A stretch of 64,000 nt of DNA from Rhodospirillales bacterium (GCA_038143065.1 JAYQLI010000033.1:37906-101905), one strand, 5' to 3'; counted from the stretch's first letter, positions 12,508-55,686 are shown. Notes: generated by a model from the sequence alone, not told the origin. Made by a program: numbers and translations.

Positions 12508-12516
12508 GGGCTGAGT

Positions 12517-14657: not shown

Positions 14658-14662
14658 TTTAT

Positions 14663-19983: not shown

Positions 19984-20046
19984 GGCGGCAGATCAGTTCC
20001 GTCAAGGGGTACGCCCGGCGCTGCGGGTTGCGCCGGGCTATTTGGT

Positions 20047-24286: not shown

Positions 24287-24360
24287 TTTTGCCTCCAAAA
24301 GTGACACAGGAGTGACCAAACATCTGGGTGAGGTGTTAACCTATTGAAAACCGGAGATTA

Positions 24361-24425
24361 CAGTTGGTTAGAGCAGCGGAATCATAATCCGCGTGTCGGG
24401 GGTTCAAGTCCCTCCTCCGCTACCA
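24361..24425 (+). repeat. att site: 65-bp 3' copy of tRNA-Met
   Basis: CAGTTGGTTAGAGC...CCGCTACCA, one mismatch versus 12332-12396; 5' acceptor stem missing. Confidence 0.95.
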
Positions 24426-24567
24426 TTTCTTTCAATATTATCAATAATTTACAACGTCTCAAAAATCATTTTGAGGCGATTTTTTCATTACACACCTCTT
24501 ACACACTTTTTGGTTGGCTTCCAGTCGCTCCAGACTATATCGTTTTTATAGTGATTGGATGTGTTAG

Positions 24568-25105
24568 ATGCCTGTTTTGCGTGAAGATTCTGTGTTGATT
24601 ATGGATGGAGCTGTAAAGCTCTACAGGCGTGAGAGAAGCCGCAAATGGCAGGCAGCCTTCCAAATAGACGGCCAATACATTCGCATTTCAACTGGCAAGA
24701 GTGATTTGGACGAAGCCAAACAGGCTGCCTCTGACAGCTATTTGGAGTACAAGTTTCGACAAAAGAATGGCGTGCCAGTTGTTTCAAAGCGGTTCTCAGA
24801 TGTAGCTAAACTGTGCATCACAGAAATGTACAAGCAGCTGGAAAGTGGCGTTGGTAAGAGGTCTATCGCGATTATGTGATCGTGCTTGAGAAATATCTTA
24901 TTCCGTTCTTTGGCAAGATGCATGTAACAAGCATAACCTACGAAACACTCCAAAAGTTTGCACGCTGGCGCGAACAGCAGATGGGCAGGGAGCCCAAAGC
25001 ATCAACGCTGAACACACATAACTCTGCTCTTAACAGAGTGTTTGATGAGAGTGTTGCGCGCGGCTTTATGAACAAAACACAGGTGCCAACACTGATCAAC
25101 AAGGG
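24568..25105 (+). pseudogene. 5' half of a tyrosine integrase near-identical to 44572-45808
   Basis: Co-linear with 44572-45110 up to ...AACAAGGG, then similarity stops; catalytic domain absent. Confidence 0.92.
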
Positions 25106-25382
25106 CGGACTCAGTTTGGGCTAAAAATGTCAATTTTAAATACACTCAATTCATATATAATTTTAAGGGGAATACAACTCATGCGCGAGCTAATCCAGAC
25201 TTGGCCCGCAAGTTTGACGCGTGCACAGATTGACGCAAAAAAAAGTGTCTGCCTTGTTGCCATCAGAGTGTGAGGCAACACTCTTTTGCTAGACAAAATG
25301 GACGAAATTCACGTCAGCACAATTCGCTGGTTATCGGACCAGTGGGTCTCGGACCTGCCATGGTCATATGTCAGAAGAGCCA

Positions 25383-25481: not shown

Positions 25482-25647
25482 CGCGGATCTTGCTTGATGG
25501 GTGGACTGATTCAACCCCAACAAATTCAATCCCATCTTTACCCATACATATTTAGTAATAATTAGACAGGTAAGGTTTCGTGGAACGTAAGAATGATGTT
25601 ACGCTTAATTAGTAAAAGTAAGCATTGGAAATGTGCGAAATAGAAAT

Positions 25648-27866
25648 ATGAAGATGGGTTTACAGATTCGTGTAAGAGGACAGGTTCAAGGGGTTGGTTT
25701 CCGACCCTTTGTATGGCGTGAGGCGCGTTCACTTGGCCTTGTGGGTGACGTCAAAAATGATAAGGAAGGTGTGCTTATCCACGTATCTGGCAATGCAATG
25801 CATGATCTGCCTGATGCGATCCGCACTTCTGCACCGCCATTGTGCGAGATCCATGGCATTGAGGTCACCGAGATGGTATGCGCGCCATCAGACCAGTTTA
25901 GGATACTGGTGTCTGGCGATGAAGGGGCGGAAACATCCTGTCCGCCGGATGCCCCATTTGCTCGGCCTGCATTGATGAGGTAAGTCAGGCGGGACGAAGG
26001 GCAGATTACGCTTTACTAACTGCACCAATTGCGGGCCGCGCTTTACGATTGTCGAACGTCTTCCCTATGATCGGCACAGGACGACGATGCGTAATTTCGA
26101 TATTTGCGAAGACTGTCGCGCCGAGTACGAAAATCCTCTTGACCGCAGATTTCATGCTCAACCTATTGCCTGTCCCAACTGTGGACCTCTCCTGACAATA
26201 AAACCCTATGCAGCTAATCCACTTGACGCTGCGTCATCACGAATTTGCAATGGAGAAATTGTTGCCGTCAAGGGATTGGGTGGGTTTCACCTAGCTTGTG
26301 ATGCGACGAACGCTGATGTTGTGCAATCCCTGCGGACACGCAAGCACCGTCCTTCCAAACCCTTTGCATTGATGGCCGATCTTGAAACCATTAGACAATT
26401 CACAGACCCATCGGATGAGGAGATAGATCTGCTGACCGGTCCCGACGCGCCAATTGTCTTGCTGGATAAAGTCAGTGGCAGACTTCCTGAGTCTATTGCG
26501 CCGGCCTTGTCACGACATGGGTGGATGTTGCCCTACACCCCTTGCATTGGCTTCTGTCCAAAAAGGTAGGGCGCCCGCTGATCATGACATCTGGGAATCT
26601 GAGTAAAGAGCCGCAGGTTATGGATAATGACGAGGCATTAGAAAAGCTCGCGCATATTGCTGACAGTTTTGTCCTGCACAATCGCCCGATAGCCCGCCGG
26701 GTTGACGACAGTGTTGTTCTGCCAACGCCATCAACGCCAATGGTTCTGCGCCGGGCGCGGGGGCAAACCCCTGGAACTCTTGCCTTGCCCATAAGCCTTC
26801 CAGACCGTCAAGTTGCCGCCTACGGCGCGGAATTGAAATCAGCCATTTGTTTGACGAAAAATGGTAGGGCGATGTTGTCGCATCATATGGGAGATTTGGA
26901 TAATGTCCTTGCCTATGAAGACTTCCTCAAAGCGGATCGGGATTTTGCCAATTTGATGGATCATCAACCGAAGCTGATCGCTGTTGACAGGCATCCAACG
27001 TATCTGTCGTCCAGATATGGCCGTGATCTTGCGGAAAAGGCGGGTCTTGCCTGCGTGGAAGTCCAACATCACCATGCGCATATGGCCGCGGCGCTGGGGG
27101 CACGCGGCTGGGATGGTGAACAGGCCGTCGGTATCATTCTGGATGGTTTGGGTTTTGGTGATGATGAGGCATTTTGGGGCGGTGAAGTTCTGGTCGGGAA
27201 CTATAAAACGTTCCGGCGGGCGGGGCAGTTGTCCTATGCGCCGCTCATTGGTGGTGACAGCGCGCAGCGCGAACCGTGGCGAAATGCGCTGGTTCGCTTG
27301 GACGCAGCTGGCCTCAACGCGGTTGCCGATCTGCTATTTTGCGATTATCCGGTCAGCCAGCTGCGCGCGGTGGCAGGCAAACACGGCCTTCGCACCACCT
27401 TCTAGTTCAGCCGGACGTTTGTTTGATGCCATCGCTGCCTGTCTTGGCATTTTGCCAGCAGGGCAGTCTTTTGAAGGTGAGGCTGCGATGCGGCTGGAAT
27501 CGCTCGCCTCTACGTCGCAAGATGATGGCTGGTACGCGTTAAGATGCTTGGGGGCCTCATTGATGAGCGAACTATTTGAAGAGCTTTTGGCTGACCAGAA
27601 GAGGGCGTTCCAGATGCAACAATCGCAAGACGCTGTCACGGCGGTATTGCGAAAGCATTTTCCGATATGGGGCGTCGCGTGGCGCTGGAGGCAGGTGCGC
27701 AAACAATAGCCATATCTGGCGGGTGTTTCCAAAACCGGTTGCTACTGACCATGGTGGCAGAGGAACTTCGGGAGTTCGAGCTTTGCGGCCCAGGGCCGGT
27801 CCCGATTAATGATGGCGGTCTGGCTTTTGGTCAGAAGCTGTGATTGCTCTGGCACAATCAAGCTGA
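25648..27866 (+). CDS. hypF: carbamoyltransferase HypF (frameshifted)
   Basis: Acylphosphatase GQVQGVGFRPFV, Zn fingers CTNCGPRF/CEDC/RRFHAQPIACPNCGP, KGLGGFHL, QHHHAH, SSAGRLFD, NDGG. Confidence 0.95.
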
Positions 27867-27934
27867 AATAGGGTGTTGGTTGTGTTTCTGATTATTCAAT
27901 TCTGAAGTACCATGCTTTGCAAAAGGAGGTTTTC

Positions 27935-28998
27935 TTGACAAAACCTGAGACACAAGCTGAGACACAAACTGGACAAACCGTCACATTTGCGTCGTGACCG
28001 TGTGACCATGGCCCACGCAGGTGGTGGCAAGGCGATGCGGGATTTGATTGATGGTGTTCGTTTCAGCTTTCGAACTAGACACATCCGAAGATCAGGCGCG
28101 CCTCGTATCGGATGCGATGAGCGAGCACGGTGCAAAACTCGCCTTTACGACTGATGGCTATGTGGTCACGCCGCTTGAGTTCGCCGGTGGTGATATTGGT
28201 AAGCTGGCAATTTGTGGGACTGTTAATGACCTCGCAGTAGGCGGGGCTAAGCCGCTTTGGCTGTCCGCCGGGTTCATCATCGAAGAAGGCTTTGAAATCT
28301 CCGTTTGCGTCGGGTGGTTTCAACAATGGCGTCCGAGGCGAAACGAGCGGATGTTCGTATCGTGACGGGCGATACCAAGGTGGTTGAGCGCGGTTCGGCT
28401 GACGGCCTTTACATCACAACGTCTGGTGTTGGGGTGATTCCGCCGGGCTGCAATCTGGGAGCGATCAGCATCCAAGAGGGCGATGTCGCAATCGTCAACG
28501 GTGTTTTGGGCGATCACGGGGCAGCTATATTGGATGCGCGCGGTGACCTTGCCCTGTCGACAACTGTCGAAAGTGATTGTCAGTCGCTCGCTTTGCTCAT
28601 GCAGGCAGTCATGAGTGCGGCGCCGAACCTGCGGGCGGCACGTGACTTGACGCGTGGTGGTTTGGCGTCTGCCCTTAACGAGATGGCGGAAACGGCCCAG
28701 CTCACTGTAGAAATTAATGAGAGTAAGTTGCCAATCCGGCCTGAGGTTCGCGGCGTGTGTGAAAATACTTGGTCTTGACCCGCTTTATCTTGCCAACGAA
28801 GGCACACTGGTCCTGTTTGTGCCAGAGAATGAAGCAGAAGCTGCGCTGGCATCAATGCGGGCGCAGGACGCTGGCCGTGACGCGGTGGTGATTGGCAAGG
28901 CGCGAAAGAAAGGGCGATTCCGGTCAATGAGGACCTTGTTCGGGGGAGGCGGGTTTGTTGATATGCTCGTTGGTGAACAGCTGCCGAGAATTTGCTGA
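27935..28998 (+). CDS. hypE: carbamoyl dehydratase HypE (frameshifted)
   Basis: [32 protein letters not shown] and C-terminal EQLPRIC. Confidence 0.95.
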
Positions 28999-29022
28999 GT
29001 CTCTTTTAGCTAGGTCTACACC

Positions 29023-30135
29023 CTATCTGGCACCGCCATATTGCCAGTAGGCAGCGCAGGCGCCTTCGGACGAAACCATCAAAGCCCCCAGCGGCATGTC
29101 AGGGGTGCACCTTTCCGAATTGTGGGCATGCAACGGGTTTGACGCGTCCTGTCATGACCTCTCCACAGGCGCACCCTTCTGGCTCTTTTTTAAGCTGTTT
29201 CGTTTTAACCCATAGCCGATGCAAATTTTTCTTCGGCGTCAAATTCCTGTATTTGGCTCGGACCCGTAAACCACTCGCATCTATCTCGCCAAGCCCACGC
29301 CACTCAAATGTAGGTCGTGGTTCAGGACGTCTTCAACAGAGGCGATGCTGATCATATTGCCATCGTCAGGCACGACCCGGGAATACTGGTTTTCAACTTC
29401 TGCACGCCCACTCGCCAATTGTCTTAGGACCGCGAGGATTGACTGCAGCAAGTCGAGCGGTTCAAAGCCGGCCACTACTATAGGTTTGTTGAAATCGCGG
29501 GCAATGAACTCATAGGGCTTTGTGCCAATGACCATCGAGACATGGCCCGGCCCCACAAAGCCGTCGATCATTGAAAGTGGATCTTCCAACAACGCCTTAA
29601 TCGGCGGCGGTACATAATGTGATTGCAGAATATGCTGAAATTTGTGAGCTCTTCACGAGCTGCCTGCTGAATGGCTATTGCCGTAGATGGCGTTGTCGTC
29701 TCAAACCCCAGCCCAAAGAAAACGACTTCTTTGTCGGGCTGACGACGGGCCAACTCCAGCGCGTCGAGAGGCGAATATACCATTCGCACATCAGCGCCAT
29801 CCGCCTTTGCTTGAAAAAGGGATTTTTTGTGCCCGGCACCCGCATCACATCGCCGAAGGTGGTCATGATAACATCGGGGCGTTCGGCGATTTCGACACAA
29901 TCATCTACACGGCTCATGGGCGTACACAGACTGGACAGCCGGGACCGTGGATGAATTCCAATCCGGGAGGGGTCAATTGTCGACCAAAAACGAAAGATGG
30001 CGTGGGTATGGCCGCCATACTTCCATGATGTGGATAGGCTTTTCGGCGGTGGCCCCTAATTCCTCAACACTCTCTCATAGCTGCCAGCAATGATCTGGCT
30101 GCCGATGGATCGCGAAATTCATCGACGAACTTCAT
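29023..30135 (-). CDS. hypD: hydrogenase formation protein HypD (frameshifted)
   Basis: [47 protein letters not shown]. Confidence 0.95.
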
Positions 30136-30421
30136 GTCTGACCTCCAAGGACCTTTCGCTTTCGAACATGGCCTCAAACTCTTCTTGCGCGTCACCCAAC
30201 GCGTGCAGGGTTTGCATGGTTTTTTCGGCTTCTTCCTCGTCGATAATGGCCATAGCGAAACCAACGTGGATCGGGACCCATTTATCAACGAGAGAGGCAA
30301 GACCTTCGCCAGAGACACAGGTGACATTTACCTTACGCTTTACGCCGGATACGTCCGCCAGCGCCAGATTGGCCTCAAAATCGGTTATCTCAACAATACG
30401 ACCAGGAATTCCAAGACACAT
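30119..30421 (-). CDS. hypC: hydrogenase chaperone HypC
   Basis: MCLGIPGRIVE N-terminus and HVGFAM. Confidence 0.95.
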   Translation of the reverse strand: MCLGIPGRIVEITDFEANLALADVSGVKRKVNVTCVSGEGLASLVDKWVPIHVGFAMAIIDEEEAEKTMQTLHALGDAQEEFEAMFESERSLEVRHEVRR

Positions 30422-30542
30422 ACCGTCCTCCAAATTGATAACAGCCCCCCAATTGGTCTTAGGCCAACCTCTACTTAACGAGACGACAATAGCATTGTGT
30501 CCCAAGGGAAAGGTCAACAGGCAACTATCAATCCGAATCTGT

Positions 30543-31544
30543 TCAGATCCTATGCGCGCAACGCCCAAGATCTCGGCGAATTTCATCCTCAGGCAAGTTG
30601 ATCCCGATGAAAACCAGAAAGCTTTTATCTGGTGCTCCGGGCAAGGGGTTCGATGGAGCATATATCGTGAACGATATTGATTAATTGTGGCAGCGGCTCG
30701 TCTGCAAAACACAGGATCCCCTTTACCCTTAGCAAATCTTCGGAATGTCGCATGATCCAGAACGAGAGGATGTCGCGAAACACATCATGATTTAGGGGCG
30801 TGTCAATTTCGATTGAAAAGGACGATATGCCATGGGTGTGATCATGGTCGTGGTCATGGTTGTGGTCATGGTTGTTGGTGTGAAGATGTTCATGGTCGCG
30901 TGAAGATGGTATGGATGGCGTTTTGTCCAGTGGCAGGAACATGGTATCGATCTCGGCCTCCGCGCCCATCACCACAATCTCGGCCAACGGATTTCTAGTC
31001 GCGAGGGTCGTGTAAATCTCGTTCACCTGTTCATTGGTTTCGAGTTCTGATTTGCTGACGACGATCCGGTCTGCCAGCGCAATCTGCTCCGCGGCCTCAA
31101 CGAAACGGACTACCTGATTGCGAATGGCTGGCGCCGCCGCAACACAGATGGTTTGCACCACCTTGATGTCTGATTTCAGGCGCAAGTCACGCGCGACAGT
31201 GCGCAGGATACTACCGGGATCGGCAAGGCCAGAGGTCTCTACGATACACCGCTCTATGCTATCTGTGTCGCGGCGTGTAATGAGTTCAACAAGGGCGGCG
31301 GCGAGGTCATCTTGGACCTCACAACAGACACAGCCATTCGGCAGACTAAGCATTTGCGTACCACCGGACATTGTTCCCAGAATCGCCCCGTCAACATCAA
31401 CATCCCCAAACTCGTTTACGAGCACAGCCGTTCCCGCACCAGCTGGAGATTTGAGATATTTATTGAGGAGAGTTGTTTTTGCCTGCACCGGAGAAAACCA
31501 GTAAGCAGGGTCATCGGAAACATATTGTTTTCTGATTTCAGCAT
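30543..31544 (-). CDS. CobW/COG0523 G3E-family metallochaperone GTPase with His-rich insert
   Basis: Walker A (frameshifted GFLGAGKT), VNEFG, GCVCC, ETSG, DHEHLHTNNHDHNHDHDHDHTH, LRVKG; upstream of and co-oriented with hypCD. Confidence 0.9.
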
Positions 31545-31715
31545 GCTCGTTTTTGAACTCTTATCTGATGAATCGTAAGGCTTTAAAAAATTTGCATTGA
31601 CATTATTTCGTTATTATATGCGCTATGGTGGGGCTTTATTATCTCTCAGAGATACTCGCAATGCTCCACATCGTTAATTTATTCACGCTTAAATGTCCAC
31701 CCAAGGAGAAGAAAA

Positions 31716-32506
31716 ATGAAAATTGCAACTGTCGGAAAAGGCGGGTCTGGCAAGACAACAATCGCTGGCACATTGACTAGGATCTTTGCAGATGACGGCC
31801 GAAAGATGCTTGCCATTGACGGTGACCCCAACCCGAATTTAGCACTCACTCTTGGCATGTCTCGCGACAAATCAGACAACATTACCTACATCCCGGCTTC
31901 AGTTATGAAGCGTGGTGGAAGAGGTGGATGGTGTGGTCCAGATGGTGCCGGCGATCCCGCGCAGAAGAGATTATCGAAAAATATGCTGCGTCAGCTGCTG
32001 ATAATGTGGACCTCATCGTGATGGGGCAACCGGGACATGGTACAGCTGGGTCGGGCTGCATGTGCGCATCGCACAGGGCGGTACGCGGCCTTGTTGCTGA
32101 ACTAACGGATTTTGGCGAGCATACGGTGACCGATATGGAAGCTGGTCTGGAACATCTTAAACGTGGTACCGCGCGCCATGTTGACATGATGCTTATCGTT
32201 GCGGAACCCTATTACCGTTCACTTGAAGCGGGGATGCGTACCGTCGCGCTGGCCAAGGAACTGGGGATAGAACACATCAAGGTTGTAGCAAACAAAGTCC
32301 GTAATAACGAGGACATGGAAGCCATTCAGACCTTCTGCGATCGCCACGAAATGGAAATCATCGGCACAGTTCCTCTTGGACGAAGATATGGTTATGCAGA
32401 GCGACAGGAATTGGCGCCTTTTGATTTTGCGCCCGACTCCTCTGGTGTTTCTTCAATTCGCAAGATCGCGCAGGCCATCGATGAACTTGCCAAACAGCCA
32501 AGTTAA
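31716..32506 (+). CDS. cooC: CooC/AcsF-type nickel-insertion ATPase (frameshifted)
   Basis: GKGGSGKT deviant Walker A, IDGDPNPNL, GCMC (CxC Ni site), DMEAGLEHL, VANKVR. Confidence 0.88.
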
Positions 32507-32914
32507 TGAATATCGGTGACCTGGCAAAGAAACTCTCAGTTTCGACTAAGACTTTGCGGCATTATGAAAAAATAGGCATCCTTCCACAGGCTAACCGCAG
32601 CGATAATGGCTACCGTACATTTTCACGGGGCCGCGGTAGGTCAAGCTCGCTTTATTGTCATGCTGAGACGTCTGGAATTGTCGCTGGAAGAAATACGCCA
32701 ACTTCTTGAGGGTAATCCAGACAGTCTTCGAAAAAACCTGATTAGCATTTTAGATGAAAAGCGCAGAGCCGCCATGGTTGAAGTGGCCGTGTTGCAGGGA
32801 AAAATCGAAGATTTAAATACACGCTCAACCAATCTTGCTACAATGCACAGTGCGATGGGTGGAAGGTGCATATGCCCTTTATTTGGTGAGAACTGTTCAT
32901 GTGACGGAGAATAA
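32506..32914 (+). CDS. MerR family regulator with C-terminal CxC-x6-CxC motif (frameshifted)
   Basis: MNIGDLAKKLSVSTKTLRHYEKIGIL...NGYR; tail CICPLFGENCSCDGE; start overlaps the cooC stop. Confidence 0.88.
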
Positions 32915-32975
32915 GGTCTAGTTTTTGATTATGCATGTTTTGTAAAAAATATTTTAAAAAAATATGAATAATGTG

Positions 32976-33007
32976 TTGACCTTTACCCGAGGGCAATCTG
33001 CCATTGT
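32976..33007 (+). promoter_or_regulatory. MerR-type long-spacer promoter/operator of the hydrogenase operon
   Basis: TTGACC-20 bp-CATTGT with imperfect dyad TTACCC-GA-GGGCAA in the spacer. Confidence 0.65.
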
Positions 33008-33069
33008 TTTGGTGTTTCTACAAACTATCAAGCTATAGTTAAACGCGATCGTATGATGGACATAGCTCA

Positions 33070-34344
33070 ATGGGGGATAAAATGGGTGAAAAAGTTGCAC
33101 GCTTAAAAGCAGAAGTTCCGACAAAAGTTAGCTATCTGCCTAGATTTGGATTGGATGAGGGTCCCGTAACCGAAGTTCATGCTTTCTGGCTGGCTGGTCT
33201 TAGTTGCGACGGTTGTTCCATTGCAGCAGTGGGAGCACAAAATCCGACAGTTGAACAATTGATAAGTGGATCAATTCCCGGCTACCCAAGGTCATTCTTC
33301 ACCACCCGGTATTGTCTGTCACGGTCGGCCATAAGTTTATGGAGGCATATCACGAAGCCAAGAATGGGACGCTTGGTGCACCATATGTTGTCATTCAGGA
33401 AGGGTCAGTCGCTGACGAGGAGATCGCCGGGGGAATTCGGCGGGTACTGGTCTGCTATGGGTGTCACGGTTGATGAGGATGGGACCCAAACTCCAATACC
33501 GACCGCACACTGGCTGCGCGATCTTGCGCCGGGGGCCGCGGCTGTCATAGCTGTTGGAACCTGTGCTACGTGGGGCGGTGTTCCTGCGGCGGCTGGCAAT
33601 CTTACAAATGCCATGTCGGTCATGGATTATCTTGGCAAGGAGTATCTGTCGACCCTCGGTCTGCCGCCGGTGAACATCCCAGGATGCGCCCCGCTCGGTG
33701 ACAACATCACTGAAACGATAACATCAGTTTTGATGTTCCTTGCCGGTTTTGGACCATTGCCTGAGTTCGACGAACTCGGCAGGCCAGCTTGGATGTTCCA
33801 GTCGACTGTGCACCGCGGATGTGTGCGGGCCGGTAATTATGAGGAAGGCAAATTCGCCGACGAGTACGGCCAAAAAGAGTGTCTTGTTGAACTTGGTTGC
33901 TGGGGACCGGTTGTACAATGCAACATGGTATCACGGGGGCCATTGGTCATAATGGGGGTGTATGAACACCGGCGGCATTTGCATCGGTTGCACCATGCCG
34001 GGCTTTCCTGATACATTGCGCCATTTTATAAGCGCCCGCCAGGCACAATGGTGTCTTCAAACATCTCGCAGCACGGGATCGTTCGTTTCCTACTTGCGGA
34101 AATTTACGCAGGACAACCAAAACCTGACAAGTCATTGGAAGAAGACGAGCGAGATTCCCGTCTGGTTGGGCGAATGTTGACGGCCGCCGCGGGTTTGGAA
34201 AGAAGGCGGTCAGCTTCTTCTATGAGAAGTTGAAGAGATCTGGAACGGAATTTACCCTGGCTCACGGCGTCAGCAGGAGCTTCAGAATCTGCTTCGCGGT
34301 ACCTAAATAAAGGCACCACGGAATTCAAGATTGCGGCGGAATAG
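33070..34344 (+). CDS. hylS: [NiFe]-hydrogenase small subunit, group 1l-like (no Tat signal), frameshifted
   Basis: WLAGLSCDGCS, GTCATWGG, NIPGCAP, HRGC...CLVELGCWGPVVQC, GGICIGCT. Confidence 0.9.
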
Positions 34345-34353
34345 GGGGCTGAC

Positions 34354-34658
34354 ATGACTCTTTGGGCGATTGGTTATTTAATAGGTGTAACTGTGGTCCT
34401 CGTCGTTGCATTGCTGCTGATCGGCATCCTACTGCAAAGCGCGGCGCATTCATCGACTGGCTACAGCGGCATCGGCAATTGTGGCCGACATCGACAGCAA
34501 CACCCGCTCCCGTATGGATGCTTGCTGCGACCAATGATGTTGCGAAGAGCCTGCTTGGCGGCGCGGAGGCTGTCCCGAACAGAACGCGATGGCCATCGTC
34601 AACGCTGTCGGCAGAGAGTGGGGATCAAGAACAGATGCAGGAAGAGGAGGTAGTGTAA
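34354..34658 (+). CDS. single-pass membrane protein TM1 (HylTM-like), frameshifted
   Basis: MTLWAIGYLIGVTVVLVVALLLIGILL followed by an amphipathic helix; TAATG overlap with the next gene. Confidence 0.75.
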
Positions 34659-34984
34659 TGGATTTGATTCTTGGAACTGACCCTATCGCAAGCTGGTGGC
34701 TGGCTGTTGCCGTTGTCGCCGTAGTTACGCTTGTTGTTGCAATTTTGTTGGCCCTCGTGATCCGCACTGCCTCGGCAATCAATGACGAAGTTGCCACTGT
34801 TTGGGCTAACGGTCAGAGGGTGGCGAACAACACCATCCATATCGCGGCGCTTTATCAGACCCGTGATTACGTCAAAGGTATCCTTGGACACGCTGGACAC
34901 ATACTGAAACACAGTCAGGCTATTCGCGATCACGCAACGGATTCTTCAAGCCACTCACAGTCTATTTTGCAGAAGGTGAATTGA
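34658..34984 (+). CDS. single-pass membrane protein TM2 (HylTM-like)
   Basis: WWLAVAVVAVVTLVVAILLALVI followed by a helical, His-containing tail. Confidence 0.8.
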   Translation: MDLILGTDPIASWWLAVAVVAVVTLVVAILLALVIRTASAINDEVATVWANGQRVANNTIHIAALYQTRDYVKGILGHAGHILKHSQAIRDHATDSSSHSQSILQKVN

Positions 34985-34985
34985 C

Positions 34986-35280
34986 ATGATTACCATCCTT
35001 ACATTCCTTACATGTCTGGCATCGCTGGCGTTGCTGGTTGTGGTCGCTATCGGTCTGATGCGTATCAACGCAGTGTTGGAGAGCATCGGAGGAACTGGCG
35101 AGCTACCTTGCCAAACTGCGTCTTGGCTTGCGCGCTATCGAGAGAGAAACATCGCATTTGCCGGCCGCTGCCCCGACCCTGAATACAGATTTAGAGGCAA
35201 TTGGCAATGGCTTGACCGCCGTAGATGCAACACTTGGCGAGGTCCATGCAGCCCTTGTGGCACAGGAGGGCCGGTCATGA
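34986..35280 (+). CDS. single-pass membrane protein TM3 (HylTM-like), frameshifted
   Basis: MITILTFLTCLASLALLVVVAIGL...YLAKLRLGLRAIERETSHL; ATGA overlap. Confidence 0.75.
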
Positions 35281-35572
35281 GCACATTAGCTTTGACGATC
35301 TGGATCACTACTCTCGTTGTCGTTGTTGTCGCTGTTGTGCCGCTTGCCTTATCGTTGCTTGCGCGCGCGCTTCGCAATGCGAGATCGATTGAGGTTACCT
35401 TTCTGACATGCTTGACGCAGGCGTCAAGATCGTTGGCCACACAGAGGCAGTGACCGCGCTAGATCAAACGCTATCAGCTGCTAGAGGACTTCAGGCTGTG
35501 GCACCCGCTATCGAGGAGAAAACCGGCGTTGTCGCAGATATTATTTCAAAACGGGCCGAGGGGAATGCGTGA
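35277..35572 (+). CDS. single-pass membrane protein TM4 (HylTM-like), frameshifted
   Basis: MSTLALTIWITTLVVVVVAVVPLALSLL followed by a helix; TGATG overlap. Confidence 0.75.
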
Positions 35573-35847
35573 TGATTACAATTCTAGCTTTTGCCACGTT
35601 GGCCGTCGTTCTGATCATCGTGCTGGTGGTCGCCTATCACCTGATCGGCATTTTTGTATCTTTAAAGCGTGGTGCTAACCACCTCGAAGCCCTGGCGGGC
35701 GGTCTGATTGCCATACGCGATAATACGATACCGCTGAACGGACGGGTGGATGAAATTAATGCTGGATTGACCGGCTTAGTGGAGCCACTCCTGGCAACAA
35801 ATAGCAACCTAGGCACGATTGTGAAGATCACTAGTGGCAGGTCGTAA
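35572..35847 (+). CDS. single-pass membrane protein TM5 (HylTM-like)
   Basis: MITILAFATLAVVLIIVLVVAYHLIGI...LAGGLIAIRDNTIPL. Confidence 0.8.
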   Translation: MITILAFATLAVVLIIVLVVAYHLIGIFVSLKRGANHLEALAGGLIAIRDNTIPLNGRVDEINAGLTGLVEPLLATNSNLGTIVKITSGRS

Positions 35848-35876
35848 ACCTAAATCAAAAGAAGAGGAATCTTTTA

Positions 35877-37746
35877 ATGTGCTTTGAAAATCTCCCAATC
35901 GAATTTGATAAGGATGGGAATGCATTTCTTAAGGACGGTATTCGCAATCCCTATGAATATCAGACGCGTACGATTGAAGAGCGCAATGCCAAGCTGAAAG
36001 AAGTTGCCGTAAAAAACGGACAGCTTGCTGATGTGGATTTCGACCCAGTTACCCGAGTTGCGGGCGCTCTGGCATTCCACTCAACGGTTGACCTCAAGAA
36101 AGGCACCGTCCTTGAGACTAATGCGATGGCTACATTGTTCCGTGGCTATGAGGTGATCCTGCGCGGTCGCGATCCGCGTGACGCTGCTTTTATCTCATCG
36201 CGCGCTTGTGGTGTTTGCGGTGGGGTACATTCGTACATCGGCGCTGTCAATTGAGATGGCTCTCGACATTAAGCCGCCTCCAATGGGCATTGTGGTTCGC
36301 AACCTGTTGCTTTCTTGTGAATATCTCTATGACAACCCGCTTCACCTCTTTGTGTTGTCAGGACCAGATTTTCTGAATCGCTGGTGAAGATGACCAATCC
36401 GGAAATCTGGGAAAAGGCTAAAAGCGCGGCTGCACCGGGGTATGAGACGCACGGTTATAAAAAGATTTCTGAGATTATGAGTGATCTTAATCCGCTTACC
36501 GGAAAGCTGTATCTTGAAGCTCTGAACATGACCCGCGTCGCGCGTGAAGTATATGTACTTTTGGGTGGTAAGTATCCACACCCTGAGACAATCATTCCGG
36601 GCGGTGTTACAACCACCATAACGACAACGACTTTCAACGAATTCTATCTGAAGATGTCGCAGTTTTTTGATTATGCGAAGAAATGTGTGGCCATCTGGGA
36701 TGACGTATTCGACTTCTTCTACGAGTGCGATCCGCGCTACAAAGGATGTTGGCAGAATTCCCGCGACGATGGTCGATTTTGGTCAGTGGGACCATGAGGA
36801 CCATTACGATGCGAGCTATGAGAACTGCAATGAGTGGGGTGAGAAGCGGTGGTCGACACCCGGCGTTGTCATCGACGGCAAGCTGGTCACCACTCGCCTG
36901 ACGGACATCAATGTTGGTTTGGAAGAGTTTGTCGAGCATTCGTACTATGAGAAATGGGAGGATTATCCCTTCAAAACAGACCCACTCGGCAATCCGCTGT
37001 CTCCGAACCACCCATGGAATAAAACGACCATTCCACGGCCAGGTGCGCAGAACTGGAAAGAGCGTTACAGTTGGTCTACCACACCAACTTGGGACCGACA
37101 GACGTTCGAAGCTGGCGCTTATGCAAGGATGTATATTTCGGCTCTTGCTCAGAAAATTCCGCATAGTGAGTATTTCGAGTCCACTGGCCACAGCATGAAG
37201 TTGAACATCCCGAAGGCTAACCTGCCGGAAGCCAACCTCGAATGGAATGTTCCGGATGTCTGGAACGCGTTTGAGCGTAACCGGGCGCGGGCCTATGCGG
37301 TTGCGTTCCAACCTTCTTGTGACCATGGAAAACCTTACTCGTGCTCTTGATCTTCAAAAGAAGGGTGAAACTCAGGTTGCGACCCCATTTGAAATTCCAA
37401 AGAAAGGCCATTCCATAGGTGTTGGTTTCTGGGGGCTGGACGGGGCTTCCTCAGTCATCACTGCGAGATTAAAGATGGGCTGCTGGCTAACTATCAGATA
37501 GTGACGCCCTCGACGGTGAATGCCTGTCCGGCAACTCCGTGGGGGGCGGTCCGTATGAAGGCTGTGTTGAATACACCGATTATCGAAACAACGTTCAAGG
37601 ACGAGAGCGACTTCCAGGGTATTGATATCCTTCGGGCGTTGCGCTCATTTGATCCTTGTATGCCTTGCACCACGCACGTGATGGTTGAGGGATCTGACCG
37701 GGTTGTTACCCGTGAGGTGACCACATGTGCCTGTGGTATTGATTGA
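35877..37746 (+). CDS. hylL: [NiFe]-hydrogenase large subunit, group 1l-like, frameshifted
   Basis: MCFENLPIEFD, FDPVTRVAG, FRGYE, L1 SRACGVCGGVH, L2 RSFDPCMPCTTH, then a tail ending CACGID. Confidence 0.93.
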
Positions 37747-37754
37747 CACGGCAC

Positions 37755-38402
37755 ATGGACGCGCCAACGGTAATGGTGGGGATCGTAGGGTACTCAGCGG
37801 TGGTGAAAGCTATCCGCTGGGACCTCACTTGCTGGAAGAGCTCGAAGCGATCTTTGGTGAAGACCCAAATGTGATACTTGAGAATTTCACATGGAGCCCT
37901 GTACATATCGTACAACGTTTGCAGGGCGGAGAAATGGAGCGACCCGACCGGGTTATTCTGGTCGGTCTCGCAGCAGACACCAATAAGCCCGGCACAGTAT
38001 CCGCGCATCGCTGGATTGGTGGATCACAGCCGGAAGTCATGGTGCAGGAACGTATTTACGAGGCTGTCACAGGCATCGTCGATCTAGAAAACACGTTGAT
38101 GATCGGCAGCTATTTTAAGGTGTGGCCAACGGAATGCCTGACAGTGGAGGTCGATCTTGCCGCTGACACGTTCGGGCGTTTGGTCATGGCTGAGAATGGT
38201 GGCAGGGACAGCGAAAGAATTGGAGCGCGAACTTGGATATTCGCCCATTGCTGTCAGGAAACAGATGGTGGAGGCAGTCAGGTCGCTGGTATTGAACGGA
38301 ATTGCGGCGAAGGATCCGGTTCTAAAAGACAAGGACGCCGATATGCTGTCGCCAATTCGTTCCTTTTCAGAAACGCATGTAGCTAACTTGTTAGGAGACT
38401 AG
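37755..38402 (+). CDS. divergent hydrogenase maturation protease-like protein, frameshifted
   Basis: ENFTWSPVHIVQRL...DRVILVG...ERIYEAVTGIVDLENTL...WP.ECLTVEV resembles the HybD/HupD fold; directly follows the large subunit. Confidence 0.55.
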
Positions 38403-38405
38403 GAG

Positions 38406-38764
38406 ATGAGCCAAGATAAAGAATCTGTAGCGCTCGACAGGATGATTGTCCGCGAAGACGTGCTGCAGATTTGTTACTGGTTTCAGGGTGAGGGGGTTTT
38501 GGCAATAGTTTTACGCCACAATCCGTCATGCCGTTCCTGCAAAATAATATTGATGTCGTGACTGAAGTGATGAGTGATCTTTCTAAGGATGGTACACTGA
38601 CCTTTGAAAATGGTGCTTACAGCTTCAGCGACGGCGGCAAGCGGCAGGCCGGCGCCATGTTCTATGACAGTTTCACTGAATTCCAGCAGGGAACCCACGG
38701 CGAATGCAACGCAGGTTGTTGTGATGGCGACGAGGTTTGCGATCACGAACACCATCACCATTAA
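38406..38764 (+). CDS. small helical (winged-helix-like) protein with Cys/His-rich tail, frameshifted
   Basis: REDVLQICYWFQGEG...YSFSDGGKRQA...HGECNAGCCDGDEVCDHEHHHH. Confidence 0.7.
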
Positions 38765-38778
38765 GGACAAGTGAGTCG

Positions 38779-39502
38779 ATGCAGATTGAAGACACGGAGC
38801 AGTCGTTGGTCGGTTACCGCACCAACGAGGAATGGCAGGATTTGCTGGCGCAGGCTGCAACGATGCTGGGCGCGCTGGATGAAATCGAAGACGAGGCAAC
38901 CCGCCAAAAGGTATTTTCCGCGATGGCGTGAAATTGATTCTGTCCATCGTGAAGCATTACATCGTCTGGTCCGACTTTTCAAAGAAGGCGTTCTTGAACA
39001 GGTTGTGACCGACCCGGCAATCAATTCTTTAATGGGAATGTATGACCTTCTTCCGCCTGAAACGCCCGGCTGTGCCAAGGTCTGGGATTTTATGGGGAAC
39101 GATGATGACGCTGACTCTGTGAGCCAGGAACAGGCGGTATCGGCAAGCGAGGTTACCATCCTGCCCCACTGGTCACCCGCACCGCCAAATGCGGTCGTCG
39201 AGGAAGGGTCTGCATATATATGTGAGATGGAAGAGGCGCGCGTCCTGCTTGTGCGTGTCGATGGCAATGATTATGCGCTGGAAGCAGAATGCCCAATTCA
39301 TAAAAAGTCTTTTGCCGACGGCCGGCTCGACAAGATGTTGTGGCACTGCGGTGAGGGGCCGGGATGTAGCTATGATATTCGCAACGGCAAGCGGTTGGGC
39401 GGCGGACAGGGTCTTAATTGTTTCCCGGTACGTGTTGAATCCGATGGTCGACGCATGATCGGCTTCGGAGTTCCGTTTGAACCCAAACTACCAGCTTTTT
39501 AA
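38779..39502 (+). CDS. hydrogenase accessory protein: helical N-domain plus degenerate Rieske-like domain
   Basis: HREALHRLVRL...DPAINSLMGMYDLLP; C-terminal ECPIH...CGEGPGCSYDIRNG...LNCFPVRVE. Confidence 0.65.
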
Positions 39503-39505
39503 AAA

Positions 39506-40011
39506 ATGGCGATCTTGGTTTCAGGTGTTGGTAATGAATTGAAAGGAGATGACGCCTTCCGGAATTCGTGCTGTGCAATGTCTGGATGATGACCCAAGGA
39601 AGCCTGAAAAGCTGCGTAACCCAACAAACAGGTATCGGTGGCATACATCTGGTTCAGGAATTGATGCGTGGGTATGAACTACTCATTCTGTTTGATGCAT
39701 TTGATCGTGGCGGCTCGCCAGGTGATCTGTGGTTGCTGGAACCTGATCTACCAAAGGCAGAAGAGATGACCCACGGTGAGCGCCGCGACTATTTCGCGGA
39801 TGTGCATTACGCGACACCCGTAAGGGCGTTGACACTGGCGCAGTCGGTGGGAGCCTTGCCCCCGCTGGTCCGCATAATCGGCTGTCAGCCTCAACAACTG
39901 GACACATTTGATACCGAGATGCACCAAACGGTGGCTGCTGCAGTGCCAAAAGCAGTTGATATGGCAATCGAAGTCATAGTCCAACTCGAGAAAAGGCAGA
40001 ATAAGGGGTAA
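39506..40011 (+). CDS. hydrogenase maturation endopeptidase (HupD/HybD family), frameshifted
   Basis: VSGVGNELKGDD, GIGGIHLVQEL, ILFDA, DVHY, IIGCQP. Confidence 0.88.
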
Positions 40012-40040
40012 AAAACAAAAACTTTACAAGGAGGGTAGGA

Positions 40041-41131
40041 ATGTTTATGCAACAAAAGCCTAACAAAATGTCCACGATAGTCGCATTACTTGCTTGCATA
40101 AGTACAGGGGCAGCCGCGGACCAAATCAGCATTGTTGATCAGCGTGATCGCACCGTCACGCTTGATGGTGAAGCAAAACGCGTTGTCACCATCCCAATTC
40201 CGGCAGCATCGATGTTTATCTCGGTTGATGGTGGTACAGACCGCCTCGTTGCTATGCACCAGTTGTCAAAAACGGCGATCAAAGGCCGTATCTTGCAACG
40301 GTTCTACCCTGATGCCCTGTCCATTCCATCGAACATCACAGGTAAGGGTTTTAGCTTTGTTCCTAATGCAGAAAGGCTTTTGGCCCTCGAACCCGATCTT
40401 GTGTTCCAGTGGGGACATCTGAATGATGACATCATCGACCCCCTAGTCAATGCAGGTCTGAACGTGGCGTTGATCAAGATTGGTCCCGAGGCCGCCACCC
40501 GCAAATGGCTGAACATCATGGGCACGGTGACCGGCAAGCCTGAAAAGGCAAAGGCGATGATCAAATGGCGTGACGAGGTCATGGCAAGAATTGAAAACTG
40601 CTACAGCGGATATCGCTGATGACCAAAAGCCGCGCACGCTCTATTTCATGAATTACCTGTCGAAACTTCGTGTGGCAGGCGGTCCATCCTACAACAATTT
40701 CTATATCAATCTGGCCGGTGGCAAGAATCCAGCGCGTGAATTGGGAATGTTCCAAGAAGTGGGTATCGAACAAGTCATCGCCTGGGATCCGGAAGTCATT
40801 CTGCTTAACGGTTTCGAAGCCAAACTGAGCCCACAGGATGTTTACAACAATCCCAATTTGGCGGATGTGGCTGCGGTCAAGAACCGCCGTGTCTACAAGA
40901 TGCCGCTTGGCGGTATCGCGCTGGGACCCGCCTAATCAGGAAAGCCCGCTGACATGGCTCTGGCTGTCGATGATCCTGCATCCCGAAAAATTTAAGTGGG
41001 ACATGTACGAGCGTATCAACAGCGGTATCAACTCATGTACGGTCAGGATGTTTCGAAGGATGATGTAGAGAACATCCTTCGTTTTGACATGAACGCAGAT
41101 GCTGCTAATTATGATATGTTTTCAGGGCTAG
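40041..41131 (+). CDS. type II ABC transporter substrate-binding protein (siderophore/B12/metal-chelate class), frameshifted
   Basis: Signal peptide, DQRDRTVTL, NAERLLALEPDLV, EQVIAWDPEVI, AVKNRRVYKMP. Confidence 0.85.
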
Positions 41132-41140
41132 GCCTATTGA

Positions 41141-42181
41141 ATGAACCTCAATGCAAAAACAATAGTCCCAGCCGCTGTTAAGCGGCTGGGGATAATGAGG
41201 TTTTTGTTAGGCGCTCTTGGGATTTCCATCGTGATCTCCCTTGGCATTGGGCGCTTTTGGCGTGCCGATTGCTCACGTAGCCGCCATTCTGCTTGATGGC
41301 ATTATCCCCTTGGAGCCAACTTGGAAACCTGTTGAGGAACGTGTTGTTGAACTAATCCGTATGCCCCGCATCCTGATTGCCGGGCTTGCCGGCGCAGGGC
41401 TTGCCGTGGCTGGTGCCGCGCTGCAGGGGGTTTGCAATCCCGCTGGTGGGGCCGCAGATCATCGGTGTGTCATCCGGTGCTGCTTTCGGTGGTTCTTTTG
41501 CAATTCTGATATCCGAAAGCCAATTCATATTGATCGGGGCGGCATTTGGTTCTGGAATTCTGGCGATGGTGATTGTCTACGCGGTCAGCCCGGCAGCAAG
41601 GACGCGCCTCAATCCTTATGCTGGTGCTTTCGGGAATTGTGACCAGCGCGTTTCTTTCGCCGTGATTTCAGTACCAAATTCGTTGCCGACCTGACGATAA
41701 ACTGCCAGCCATCGTTTTCTGGTTGATGGGTAGTTTTGCATCTGCAAGCTATGAAAAAGGTGGCGCTGATAGGCATTCCGGTGGCAATCGGAACCATCGT
41801 TATCTATCTCATGCGCTTTCAGATCAACGTACTGTCCTTGGTGATGAGGAGGCCCAGTCCTTGGGGCTGAAGGTTGAAAGGACACGCTGGATTGCTCTTG
41901 TGGCGGTGGCATTGATCAGTGCGGCTGTAGTTGCCGCTGCGGGTATCGTTGGCTGGTTGGACTGGTGATTCCACATTTTGCGCGAATGCTTACCGGCCCG
42001 GATCACCGGGTTCTGATACCGGCGTCGGCGTTGATTGGGGGGGTATATTTGATTCATGTCGACAATGTCGCCAGAGCGTCTATCGCGGCGGAAATACCTG
42101 TGGGCATTATTACCGCCATGCTTGGCGCGCCAGTCTGCCTTTTATTGCGCCGCGCTGCCAACAGGTTGGTCGTCCAAATGA
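41141..42181 (+). CDS. FecCD/BtuC-type permease, frameshifted
   Basis: [48 protein letters not shown]. Confidence 0.88.
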
Positions 42182-42909
42182 TCAAGGTTCAACAGGCTGC
42201 TTTTCGGTATAGTGACGAATGGGTGTTTCGTAACGTCAGTTTCACCTTGGCCAAGGGGCAGACCGCGGCAATTCTTGGGCCGAACGGCAAGGGCAAGACC
42301 ACACTTTTGAAATCCATTATTGGACTGCATCCTCTAGCCGAGGGATCAGCCGAAACCGTTGGCCAAATAGGATATGTCGCCCAGAAAAACGACATTGCCT
42401 TTTCCTACAAAGTGATTGATGTCGTCGTGATGGGACGCGCGGCGCATATTGGTTTGTTTCAAACACCAAGCCATAAGGATTATCAGATCTGAGGCATACT
42501 CTGGATCGACTTGGGATCAGTGATTTTGCCGAAAGGATATTCAGCCAGCTTTCGGGCGGCGAGCGTCAGCTGGTCATGATTGCACGGGCGCCTCAGATGT
42601 GGTGCTGGTGATGGATGAACCAACATCTGCGTTAGATTTCTTCAATCAGGCACTGATCATGAAGACTTTACGCCGGATCAGTGCGGAAGACGGGTTAACA
42701 GTCCTCATAACGACGCATGTGCCCCAGCAGGTACAAGTGCTGGCGGACAGGGTTTTGTTAATGTACGCGCCCGACGGGCAGGGTGAGAACTGGACAGGAC
42801 ATGCTGTCGGAGGAAAAATTGGAAGAGGCTTTATGGTGTGCCTATCAAATCGATAACGCTTCAGCATGAGGGCAACAGCATTTCAGCGCTTGTCCCGTTA
42901 TTTATCTAA
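42178..42909 (+). CDS. ABC transporter ATPase (FepC/BtuD-like), frameshifted
   Basis: [28 protein letters not shown]. Confidence 0.88.
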
Positions 42910-42931
42910 CCCCATCGACCGTCCGAAACGG

Positions 42932-43559
42932 TCATTTGTCTGTGTCGATGCGGGCTGCGATGAAGGCGTCCATGCTTTCACAATTTTTTGACAGTGCGGC
43001 GATTGACGGGAAGTCACTATCTGGAAGCGTTGCAGGGAAAATATGATTTACGAAGCTGAAAGCAGTCGCGCAGGTGATATCTGTCTGTAACAGGCTGTTC
43101 CCGTCAAATAATCCTTGCCTTTGAGCTTTTGCTCCAACAACTCAAACCCTTGTTTGCACTGCCGTAATAGCCTGTCTATACGCCCGGGTTCAGGAACAGC
43201 GCGACGGCGTTCGGCGTTTGCGGTCATTGAACGGTCGATTGCACCCGTGGTAACTGCCAATATCTGCAAGGCTTCGCGGCGGCGTTCGCCCGAGATAGGG
43301 ACCAGTGCGCGCGCCGGTCCAGCAGCCTCGTCATAATGATCAAGGATAGCGGAGCTTTCAATCAGTATTTTGCCGTTTTCAAGCTGTAATGCCGGCACCC
43401 TGCCTACCGGGTTTACCGCTTCGCGTTTTTCTTCGTCATCGACGGCCGATATCACCGAGTGTTCAAAAGAGATACCAGAATGTTGAGAGAAATACCAACC
43501 CGGCGAACATAGGGTGAGAGGAACCTGCCAAACAGGATGGGCGCATCGTTTTTCATCAT
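42932..43559 (-). CDS. glutathione S-transferase family protein, frameshifted
   Basis: SPYVRRV, NPVGRVPAL, ILIESSAILDH. Confidence 0.85.
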
Positions 43560-44110: not shown

Positions 44111-44387
44111 GTTTCAAAATTTTTAAAAAAAATCAACATTTGATGATAGCATTTGAAAAAATTTTGAGAATTGCTGGGGGTATTGGAGCAAGATCTGAAC
44201 AGGCGCGGTAGGTGATATAAACAAGCCGCATGGAGATGGGTAGGTCTAGTATTGGACCAACAGAAATTTTGACGGCATGTTCAGATTGTGGACATGACGA
44301 CTATCTTCCGTATGACGCCCTTCAGGCTGATAGGCACTAACTCAACCTATTGATATCGATTTCAAAGCTTCAAAATCGATATAGGAA

Positions 44388-44429
44388 ATAATCCGCGTGT
44401 CGGGGGTTCGAGTCCCTCCTCCGCTACCA
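44388..44429 (+). repeat. att site: 42-bp 3' copy of tRNA-Met
   Basis: ATAATCCGCGTGTCGGGGGTTCGAGTCCCTCCTCCGCTACCA identical to the tRNA 3' end. Confidence 0.95.
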
Positions 44430-44571
44430 TTTCTTTCAATAATATCAATGAATTTAGCGTCTCAAAAATCGATTTTGAGGCGATTTTTCCATTACACACC
44501 TCTTACACACTTTTTGGTTGGCTTCCAGACGCTCCAGACTATATCGTTTTTATAGTGATTGGATGTGTCAG

Positions 44572-45808
44572 ATGCCTGTTTTGAGTGAAGATTCTGTGTT
44601 GGTTATGGATGGAGCTGTAAAGCTTTACAGGCGTGAGAGAAGCCGCAAATGGCAGGCGGCCTTCCAAATAGACGGCCAATACATTCGCATTTCGACTGGC
44701 AAGAGTGATTTAGACGAAGCCAAACAGGCCGCGTCTGACAGCTATTTGGAATACAAGTTCCGCCAGAAGAATGGCGTGCCAGTTGTCTCAAAGCGCTTCT
44801 CAGATGTAGCTAAACTGTGCATCACAGAAATGAACAAGCAGCTAGAAAGTGGCGTTGGAAAGAGAGTCTATCGCGACTATGTGATTGTGCTTGAGAAATA
44901 TCTAATCCCGTTCTTTGGCAAGAAGCATGTCACCAGCATCACCTACGAAACACTCCAGAAATTTGCACGCTGGCGCGAACAGCAGATGGGCAGGGAGCCC
45001 AAAGCATCAACGCTGAACACACATAACTCTGCTCTTAACAGAGTGTTTGATGAGAGTGTTGCGCGTGGCTTTATGAACAAAACACAGGTGCCAACACTGA
45101 TCAACAAGGGTAGGGATAGTGAGAGACGGCCAGATTTCTCCCAAGAAGGAATATGCTTCAATGATCCGTAAATTGCCGCACTGGATCAACAAGACACAGC
45201 ATCCAAAGTCAGTCCACATGCGTGAGCTACTGAGAGACTATGTGCTGATCATGGCCAATACAGGCATGAGACATGGCACAGAAGCACAAAACCTCAAATG
45301 GCAGCACATCACTCAGTTTGAAGACAAAGGACAGAGCTATCTTGAGATGAGTGTGAGTGGCAAGACAGGCCGCAGAGATATTATCTGTAGGTCTGGCACT
45401 ATCAATTATCTCAAGCGCATCCACGAGCGCTCAGAGGACATAAAGCACCTAGAGTTTGAAGAATTACTAAAGCAGCGATTAGATCTGCCAGTGTTCCGTT
45501 TAAGAGATGGAACAGTCACTAATGCTCTTCACCAAACATTTAGAAATTTTCTCAAAGAGAACGAACTGTTGATTTGTCCGAGGACAGGCCAGGCTCGCAC
45601 GCTCTACAGCCTCAGACACACATATGCGACATTTGCTCTGCTGAAAGATGGCATGGACATCCATACACTCGCTATTCAGATGGGCACTTCAATACAGATG
45701 ATAGAGCGTCACTACAGTCATTTGACGCCGCGATTGAAGAAAGACATGCTCACAGGCAAAAGGTATGAGTTGTCGCGGGATGAGTTTGAGAAGCTTGCTG
45801 ATAGATAA
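44572..45808 (+). CDS. tyrosine integrase of island 3 (one frameshift near 45150)
   Basis: NTGMRHGTE, GKTG, LYSLRHTYAT, QMGTS, RHY; immediately inside the att site. Confidence 0.92.
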
Positions 45809-54405: not shown

Positions 54406-54418
54406 GGAGATTACTTCA

Positions 54419-55685: not shown

Positions 55686-55686
55686 A

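Follow-up and report, generated by a model that had tools for sequence, protein, structure and literature searches.

We analysed a 64,000-nucleotide stretch of DNA from a Rhodospirillales bacterium (GCA_038143065.1, JAYQLI010000033.1:37906-101905), here called the window, in whose coordinates all positions are given unless another locus is named. Our best reading of its central region is an integrative island of about 20 kb in an uncultured marine alphaproteobacterium, located at a tRNA-Met gene. Judging by pairwise identity and by the plan of the locus, the gene cluster that it carries is a complete group 1l (Hyl) [NiFe]-hydrogenase system. Comparative genomics suggests that an ATPase of the CooC type encoded in this cluster (hereafter CooC-like) is probably the nickel-insertion nucleoside triphosphatase of group 1l hydrogenases, a lineage that generally lacks HypA and HypB.

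HypA and HypB are the normal nickel inserters of [NiFe]-hydrogenases, and HypC, HypD, HypE and HypF build the Fe(CN)2CO unit. An earlier note on this DNA had described a cluster with hypF, hypE, hypD, hypC, both hydrogenase subunits, a CobW GTPase and a CooC ATPase, and without hypA or hypB. Genes were called here with Pfam on all stop-to-stop open reading frames (ORFs; 120 on the plus strand, 92 on the minus strand) and with tblastn using the proteins of a clean orthologous locus, L022 from Pseudaestuariivita atlantica. Both approaches agree with the gene content and order as first described, and the Pfam scan of the island ORFs returned neither HypA nor HypB. In the whole source genome, the best match to HypA (PF01155) has an E value of 0.21 and 13.4 bits, and the best match to HypB (TIGR00073) reaches 37.4 bits against a cut-off of 121.2. 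From this genome-wide profile search for HypA, HypB, UreG and CooS only UreG emerged: the sole HypB-like match is a split UreG (226 bits to TIGR00101), and the Prismane/CooS family of nickel CO dehydrogenases (Ni-CODH; PF03063) was not found. The only [NiFe] large subunit detected in this genome is HylL, the one of the window. A frameshift divides the host ureG itself (G000:C35:1694024-1694595), although it lies on the main contig, which is well assembled.

Since the source genome is a bin with a completeness of 97.6% and a contamination of 5.5%, these absences are weak by themselves, and the pattern was therefore tested in other genomes. A survey of 165 relatives left 80 loci; genomes were examined for 50 of these, chosen mainly among the longer loci, and subsequently for another 5. 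Among the 50 genomes HypA was found in 9 and HypB in 6, and the six HypB carriers are exactly the six that encode an additional, non-1l large subunit. In four of these six, hypB is on the same contig as the non-1l hydrogenase, while in G053 hypA alone shares that contig. The 44 genomes with 1l as their only PF00374 large subunit (a label that is not exhaustive, since this profile misses group 4) gave HypB in 0/44 and HypA in 3/44, one copy being full length and two partial. Carriers with neither protein include the complete chromosome of Maribacter halichondriae and the isolates HIMB30 and Marinovum algicola FF3. HypB was present in two of the five further genomes; another of these five, an Aquaticitalea MAG (metagenome-assembled genome), has a second large subunit, yet HypA and HypB were not found in it. 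Over all 55 other 1l genomes HypB occurs in 8, six of them with a non-1l hydrogenase. Results showed that the 1l lineage is generally without HypA and HypB, a rule that is strong but not absolute, and the expectation that most cooC-bearing 1l genomes would have no hypAB was borne out by the same counts.

The gene that we call cooC-like (31716..32494, plus strand) heads the structural operon of the window and encodes an ATPase with a deviant Walker A (GKGGSGKT) and a CxC+H motif, whose CxC reads GCMC; the DMEAGLEH motif quoted for it earlier is also present. The clean orthologue (L022:5041-5820) has 260 amino acids. Among solved structures its closest relative is CooC1 of Carboxydothermus hydrogenoformans (PDB 3KJE), which matches over the full length with E 8e-34 and with the CxC metal site aligned. 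The other solved relatives follow at a distance, namely MinD with E 1e-10 or worse and the Mrp-type HypB of Thermococcus kodakarensis with E 4e-4. No NCBIfam model reached its cut-off with this protein, the matches to MinD, NifH-like and Mrp models all being far below, and databases name its relatives AAA family ATPase, CO dehydrogenase maturation factor or CooC. The Walker A and the motif G-x-G-C-M-C-x-x-H were present in all 40 orthologues that were extracted and invariant in the 39 that were aligned, those of Bacteroidota included.

We found cooC-like in 48 of the 50 1l genomes (E <= 1e-25), nearly always on the hydrogenase contig, with one copy per 1l locus and, in a genome with two such loci, two copies. 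It was missed in a MAG of very low coverage and in a Methylococcales MAG. With three of the five further genomes positive, the overall count is 51/55. None of 40 relatives without the enzyme had cooC-like, and among 400 phylum-mates, in none of which HylL was found, a single distant protein (35% identical) was detected. The catalytic subunit of Ni-CODH (TIGR01702) was found in 0/50 carrier genomes and is likewise missing from the source genome, so that a CODH client for CooC-like is absent from all of them. Proteobacterial loci with the gene mostly have it as the first of the operon cooC-merR-hylS. In Bacteroidota it directly adjoins hypC in the same orientation (5/5 loci holding cooC-like), as in the Maribacter locus, where the order is hypD-hypE-TonB receptor-tetR-hypC-cooC. 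The earlier note had proposed that CooC and/or CobW replace HypAB: the CooC half of this proposal finds support in all the genomic tests, with a near-universal, locus-linked gene lacking a CODH client, and the CobW half is weaker, with a gene in only 27/80 loci.

Taken together, these data suggest a route in which HypCDEF would make the Fe(CN)2CO part as usual, while nickel would be delivered to HylL by a path other than HypA/HypB. The MinD-class ATPase of the CooC family, whose gene leads the hyl operon or, in Bacteroidota, adjoins hypC, would take nickel at its invariant CxC(+His) site and pass it, at the expense of ATP, to the HylL precursor before the protease trims the C-terminal extension. 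A COG0523 GTPase, and perhaps the small protein u119, would act as accessory metal chaperones for supply or storage; a MerR regulator would sense the metal and probably regulate, and an ABC (ATP-binding cassette) importer, or a TonB receptor in one Bacteroidota locus, would probably bring the metal in. Two elements of this route have precedents in the accessible parts of reviews: CooC binds nickel at its CxC site and is needed for the C-cluster of CODH, and an archaeal MinD-class ATPase can stand in for the GTPase HypB. We found no published statement of CooC as the 1l nickel inserter, although the supplements of the 1l paper may list the genes without comment; the accessible text of the 1l preprint, of the marine H2 paper and of the 2026 paper on horizontal gene transfer does not mention hypA, hypB, CooC or CobW at 1l loci.

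Several points weigh against CooC-like as the nickel inserter. High nickel rescues hypB mutants of E. coli, so that a missing HypB need not be replaced at all. Among the carriers, a Rubrivivax MAG (the sixth HypB carrier) has hypA and hypB in a hyp operon adjoining the 1l genes, its second large subunit being on a short contig. G495, a Lewinellaceae MAG, combines a hypAB pair with cooC-like and has 1l as the only large subunit detected, and G491, an Ilumatobacteraceae MAG, has HypB while neither cooC-like nor another PF00374 large subunit was found in it. The surveyed genomes are mostly MAGs of unknown completeness and come nearly all from Proteobacteria and Bacteroidota, the genomes of 25 of the 80 loci were left out, and PF00374 is blind to group 4 large subunits. 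Moreover, according to the part of the literature available to us, two named 1l carriers took up no H2 in culture. One, M. algicola FF3, has cooC-like and lacks hypAB; the other, Robiginitalea biformata, is outside our survey.

We also considered that CooC-like may be tied to the hydrogenase through another role, either in delivering Fe-S clusters to the small subunit HylS or in a MinD/ParA-like placing of the membrane-anchored complex, with nickel entering unaided or via housekeeping chaperones, for instance UreG/UreE or SlyD. MinD-class ATPases do include Fe-S carriers and positioning proteins, all the NCBIfam matches (MinD, NifH-like, Mrp) are far below cut-off, UreG is present in the source genome, and the accessible text of a 2026 paper predicts that the Hyl complex is anchored in the membrane by five transmembrane proteins. 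We nevertheless hold this explanation to be unlikely, if a real possibility, considering that the nearest solved relative is by far a nickel chaperone, that the CxC of the CooC metal site is invariant, and that in Bacteroidota the gene lies in the hyp maturation operon by hypC, away from the membrane subunits. A different candidate for the true HypB substitute, which would leave CooC-like an auxiliary role, is the COG0523 (CobW/YjiA-type) GTPase encoded at 30558..31560 on the minus strand, a G3E relative of HypB. Its protein has the PF02492 and CobW_C domains, the CxCC motif (GCVCC, as quoted earlier) and a His-rich insert, its best solved relative is YjiA (E 7e-37), and in the window and 19 loci the gene runs in the direction of hypC and hypD and away from cooC. 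Against this candidate, after dropping matches restricted to a 145-residue stretch antisense to cooC, a true COG0523 gene was left in only 27 of the 80 loci and in 24 of the 45 with cooC-like (adjacent in 19); there was none in the loci of Bacteroidota, Geminicoccaceae, Devosia or M. algicola FF3, and the copies share only 30-55% identity with each other. We consider it quite improbable that this GTPase is the substitute, and we read it as a putative accessory in part of the Proteobacteria.

The remaining explanation is that nothing is unusual here, either because hypAB were missed in an incomplete and error-ridden bin or because the cluster is a decaying array of pseudogenes. Indeed, every gene of the cluster is broken in the window, with at least 32 frame switches across the cluster as mapped by tblastn with the clean orthologues and without a long reading frame in the region. 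The bin consists of one good contig of 2.86 Mb (0.75 of its bases in ORFs of >=200 amino acids) and 51 small contigs, most with lower ORF continuity, and contig C33, which holds the window, has a continuity of 0.45. Against a missed hypAB, HypB is likewise missing in 44/44 other 1l-only genomes, a complete chromosome and isolates among them. Against decay, the in-frame segments of the window are 64-87% identical to the clean orthologues (tblastn), and the frameshifts are gone in independent short-read contigs. A single contig of run X7 covers all of 25600-43000 with 59 substitutions and 127 gaps, and runs X1 and X7, from different studies, concur against the window at 108 indel places; among the 12 such places listed, those at 28762, 31917, 31963 and 32627 are frame-switch junctions that had been mapped independently. 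Since these independent contigs agree against the indels of the window, the frameshifts are errors of assembly and the genes are intact in nature, not decaying. We therefore regard an ordinary, merely overlooked or decaying system as very improbable.

Sequences of this cluster recur in public data. Fourteen DNA runs from ten studies (estuary and seawater metagenomes) each hold exactly 0.86 of the 31-mers sampled from 31500-40100. Contigs from RNA libraries of two studies cover parts of the cluster within 27.3-42.4 kb, including the 3' end of cooC, hylS with the small ORFs, hylL, u216, u119, and the genes of the protease and of the binding protein. Since DNA may have been carried over, they give no more than a hint of transcription. 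An alternative genetic code was also considered as the cause of the broken frames and was rejected, because reading TGA as Trp left the genes broken and the in-frame TGAs fall between compensating indels. Homopolymers are in weak excess at the frame-switch junctions (mean longest run 2.86 vs 2.62 at random; runs >=4 in 24% vs 13%), which we did not use as evidence.

The assignment to group 1l rests on the five small ORFs between hylS and hylL and on the identity of HylL to that of a named 1l carrier. The small subunit gene hylS (33082..34341, plus strand; Pfam, tblastn) is followed by five short ORFs, HylTM1-5 (34345..35844, plus strand), and by hylL, the group 1l large subunit gene (35877..37743, plus strand). 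The order hylS, five short ORFs, hylL, conserved ORFs, a Rieske-like protein and a protease is the plan given for the group 1l enzyme of Hymenobacter roseosalivarius, a proven H2 oxidiser, in the accessible part of the 1l preprint. In L022 the five ORFs have 91-110 amino acids, all match the window, and transmembrane helices can be recognised in them by eye. HylL of L022, our reference, is 81% identical to that of M. algicola FF3, which is named as a 1l carrier in the accessible text of Lappan et al. The window HylL is 74-81% identical to the reference in long alignments reading through the frameshifts. The clean orthologue has both the N-terminal (RxCGxCxxxH) and the C-terminal (DPCxxCxxH) nickel motif, 39 sequences show them without variation, and the C-terminal one was seen in the window HylL. 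According to the accessible sources, group 1l enzymes, still termed uncharacterised in 2026, prevail among the hydrogenases of Antarctic desert soils and are important in polar oceans.

Other parts of the cluster are rich in thiolates as well. After DPCxxCxxH, HylL has a C-terminal extension of 22 residues (37680-37743; L022:10915-10978) that ends in a ten-residue stretch containing a CxC. This stretch is invariant across 39 HylL orthologues, from Proteobacteria to Bacteroidota, that are otherwise 65-90% identical. Such an extension is normally a poorly conserved leader for the protease. The small conserved protein u119 (38406..38761, plus strand; L022:11642-11998) is kept in 1l loci from Proteobacteria to Bacteroidota. 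Its model (pLDDT, the predicted local distance difference test score, 81.5 overall) shows a winged-helix domain at residues 10-90, where the score exceeds 90, and a disordered Cys/His-rich tail, in which a His, a Glu and four Cys are invariant (H-G-E-C...C-C...C) and which often continues into a run of His. No Pfam or NCBIfam family matched it, the winged helix is generic and without a specific fold match, and the Atlas clusters to which it belongs are named 'hypothetical protein' alone; u119 may serve to sense metal or as a chaperone for nickel. In the Methylococcales MAG in which cooC-like was missed (L059/G065), HylL has an in-frame TGA and the tail of u119 is scrambled; this locus may be decaying. 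The MerR-family regulator gene merR (32506..32902, plus strand; Pfam, tblastn) follows cooC-like, and its orthologues mostly end in CxC-x5-6-CxC.

These features would fit a more elaborate scheme, a dedicated all-thiolate nickel relay bypassing HypA/HypB, in which the CxC of CooC and the CxC of the HylL tail would form a shared four-Cys nickel site that loads the active site, fed by u119 and, where present, by the COG0523 GTPase, with MerR as nickel sensor. We consider this specific scheme doubtful. Regarding uptake, the ABC importer of the window (40065..42903, plus strand; Pfam, tblastn) comprises a Peripla_BP_2 binding protein, a FecCD permease and an ATPase. In Maribacter halichondriae a TonB-dependent receptor and a TetR regulator lie inside the hyp operon (L097:16344-18464), between hypE and hypC-cooC. 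By analogy, this receptor may parallel the importer of the marine Proteobacteria, both supplying nickel.

The other genes of the cluster were called by the same two methods. On the plus strand, hypF (25609..27840) is in at least five frame pieces and has the acylphosphatase, Zn finger, YrdC and Kae1-like domains, and it is followed by hypE (27966..28995). The genes hypD (29014..30135) and hypC (30137..30421) are on the minus strand, as is the COG0523 gene. The earlier note had spoken of endopeptidases in the plural. One is clear, the hydrogenase maturation endopeptidase of HycI/HupD type at 39506..39978 (plus strand; Pfam, tblastn). The second, u216 (37755..38396, plus strand; tblastn, hhalign, Foldseek), is at most a remote HycI-like paralogue. 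Although its predicted fold is confident (pLDDT 94.7), we rejected it as a firm protease: hhalign gave 64% (E 6e-5), Foldseek gave mixed matches with E of about 1e-3, HybD and HycI among them, and there was no sequence match in the PDB. Between u119 and the clear endopeptidase lies u250 (38737..39499, plus strand; tblastn), probably the Rieske-type HylE, and a glutathione S-transferase-like gene (42944..43556, minus strand) is conserved beside the importer in marine loci.

The mobile character claimed for the cluster is supported by several lines. The intact tRNA-Met gene is at 12320-12396, and its 3' part (12332-12471) is repeated at 24361-24500 and 44365-44504. The island occupies 24.4-44.4 kb and is bracketed by direct repeats of 725 nucleotides, which by comparison within the window are 94.6% identical (24384-25105 vs 44388-45110); the ends placed earlier near 24425 and 44388 are thus real. 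Each repeat copy consists of the tRNA-Met 3' piece followed by the 5' part of an integrase gene. At the left end (24361..25105, plus strand) Phage_int_SAM matches at 24858-25121, and at the right end (44365..45110, plus strand) the second tRNA-Met copy is joined to the start of the integrase of the next island. For the integrase of the hydrogenase island, Pfam recognised the N-terminal domain alone, and its likeness to the copy of the neighbouring island ends at 25105.

The composition of the island is foreign, its tetranucleotide correlation to the main contig being r 0.54-0.60. Contig C33 outside the islands gave r 0.84-0.91 (10-kb windows of the main contig itself, 0.887 +/- 0.072), a composition that fits membership of the bin. 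We had also tried the flanking genes (CorA, multicopper oxidase) as host markers; they are only 34-47% identical to their best match in the same genus and are no proof that the contig is part of this bin. The hydrogenase small subunit was found in 0/40 relatives from the same genus, family or class, and HylL in 0/400 sampled genomes of the host phylum. A fragment of the large subunit is 90-94% identical to enzymes of Granulosicoccaceae, Paracoccaceae and Rhizobiaceae, while the RecA of the host is closest to MAGs of Alphaproteobacteria (82-86%). These counts and identities are consistent with a recent transfer, as is the accessible text of the 2026 paper, which reports that in Antarctic soils no metabolic genes are transferred more often than those of 1l and 1h hydrogenases.

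Further islands or candidate islands lie around it. Directly after the intact tRNA-Met gene lies a first island (12320-24500) with 59-64% GC, and the 12-22 kb segment has a tetranucleotide r of 0.04 to the host. The order at this tRNA gene is this first island, the hydrogenase island and a third integrase-led segment, making a tandem island array. Further on, a copper-handling set (ScsC/DsbA-like, CopD and multicopper oxidase; 53154-57071 and 57245-63436) is found beside a second tRNA-Met, and the repeats 57169-57249 and 63160-63240, together with a partial tRNA copy at 63405-63436, suggest another island.

The nickel route regarded as standard for [NiFe]-hydrogenases is HypA/HypB, and CooC is regarded as a chaperone specific to CODH. 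The ATPase of the island belongs to the same family as the CooC proteins of C. hydrogenoformans and Rhodospirillum rubrum, with the deviant Walker A and the CxC aligned; unlike them, it occurs without a Ni-CODH anywhere in the 50 carrier genomes or the source genome and is locked to a [NiFe]-hydrogenase locus. With the HypA/HypB module it would share the job, a nucleoside triphosphate-driven delivery of nickel to the large-subunit precursor before C-terminal cleavage, and the position in or beside the hyp operon. However, HypB is a G3E GTPase and HypA a zinc-finger protein, and neither family was found here or in most 1l genomes. The ATPase-type (Mrp/MinD) HypB of T. kodakarensis (PDB 3VX3) is, as far as its accessible description goes, a precedent for a MinD-class ATPase replacing the GTPase HypB; it differs in being distant in sequence, archaeal, and partnered by HypA, which is missing here. 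Compared with the Hyl systems of H. roseosalivarius and marine bacteria, the enzyme and the locus plan, with HylE and the protease, are the same in the parts of the sources available, while the present locus is on a tRNA-Met island with an ABC importer. The GTPase of the island shares the family domains and the CxCC with the COG0523 metallochaperones YjiA, ZigA, CobW and Nha3, whereas the 2009 survey of COG0523, in its accessible part, placed hypB and not COG0523 in hydrogenase clusters.

In conclusion, the island shows the whole kit moving as one 20-kb unit. If CooC-like is indeed the nickel inserter, the 'CooC' genes of aerobic genomes, now annotated as CO dehydrogenase maturation factors, would need rereading, and the set of genes to be co-expressed when making 1l enzymes heterologously would change. 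The 1l loci would then also offer a natural experiment for client switching by nickel chaperones.

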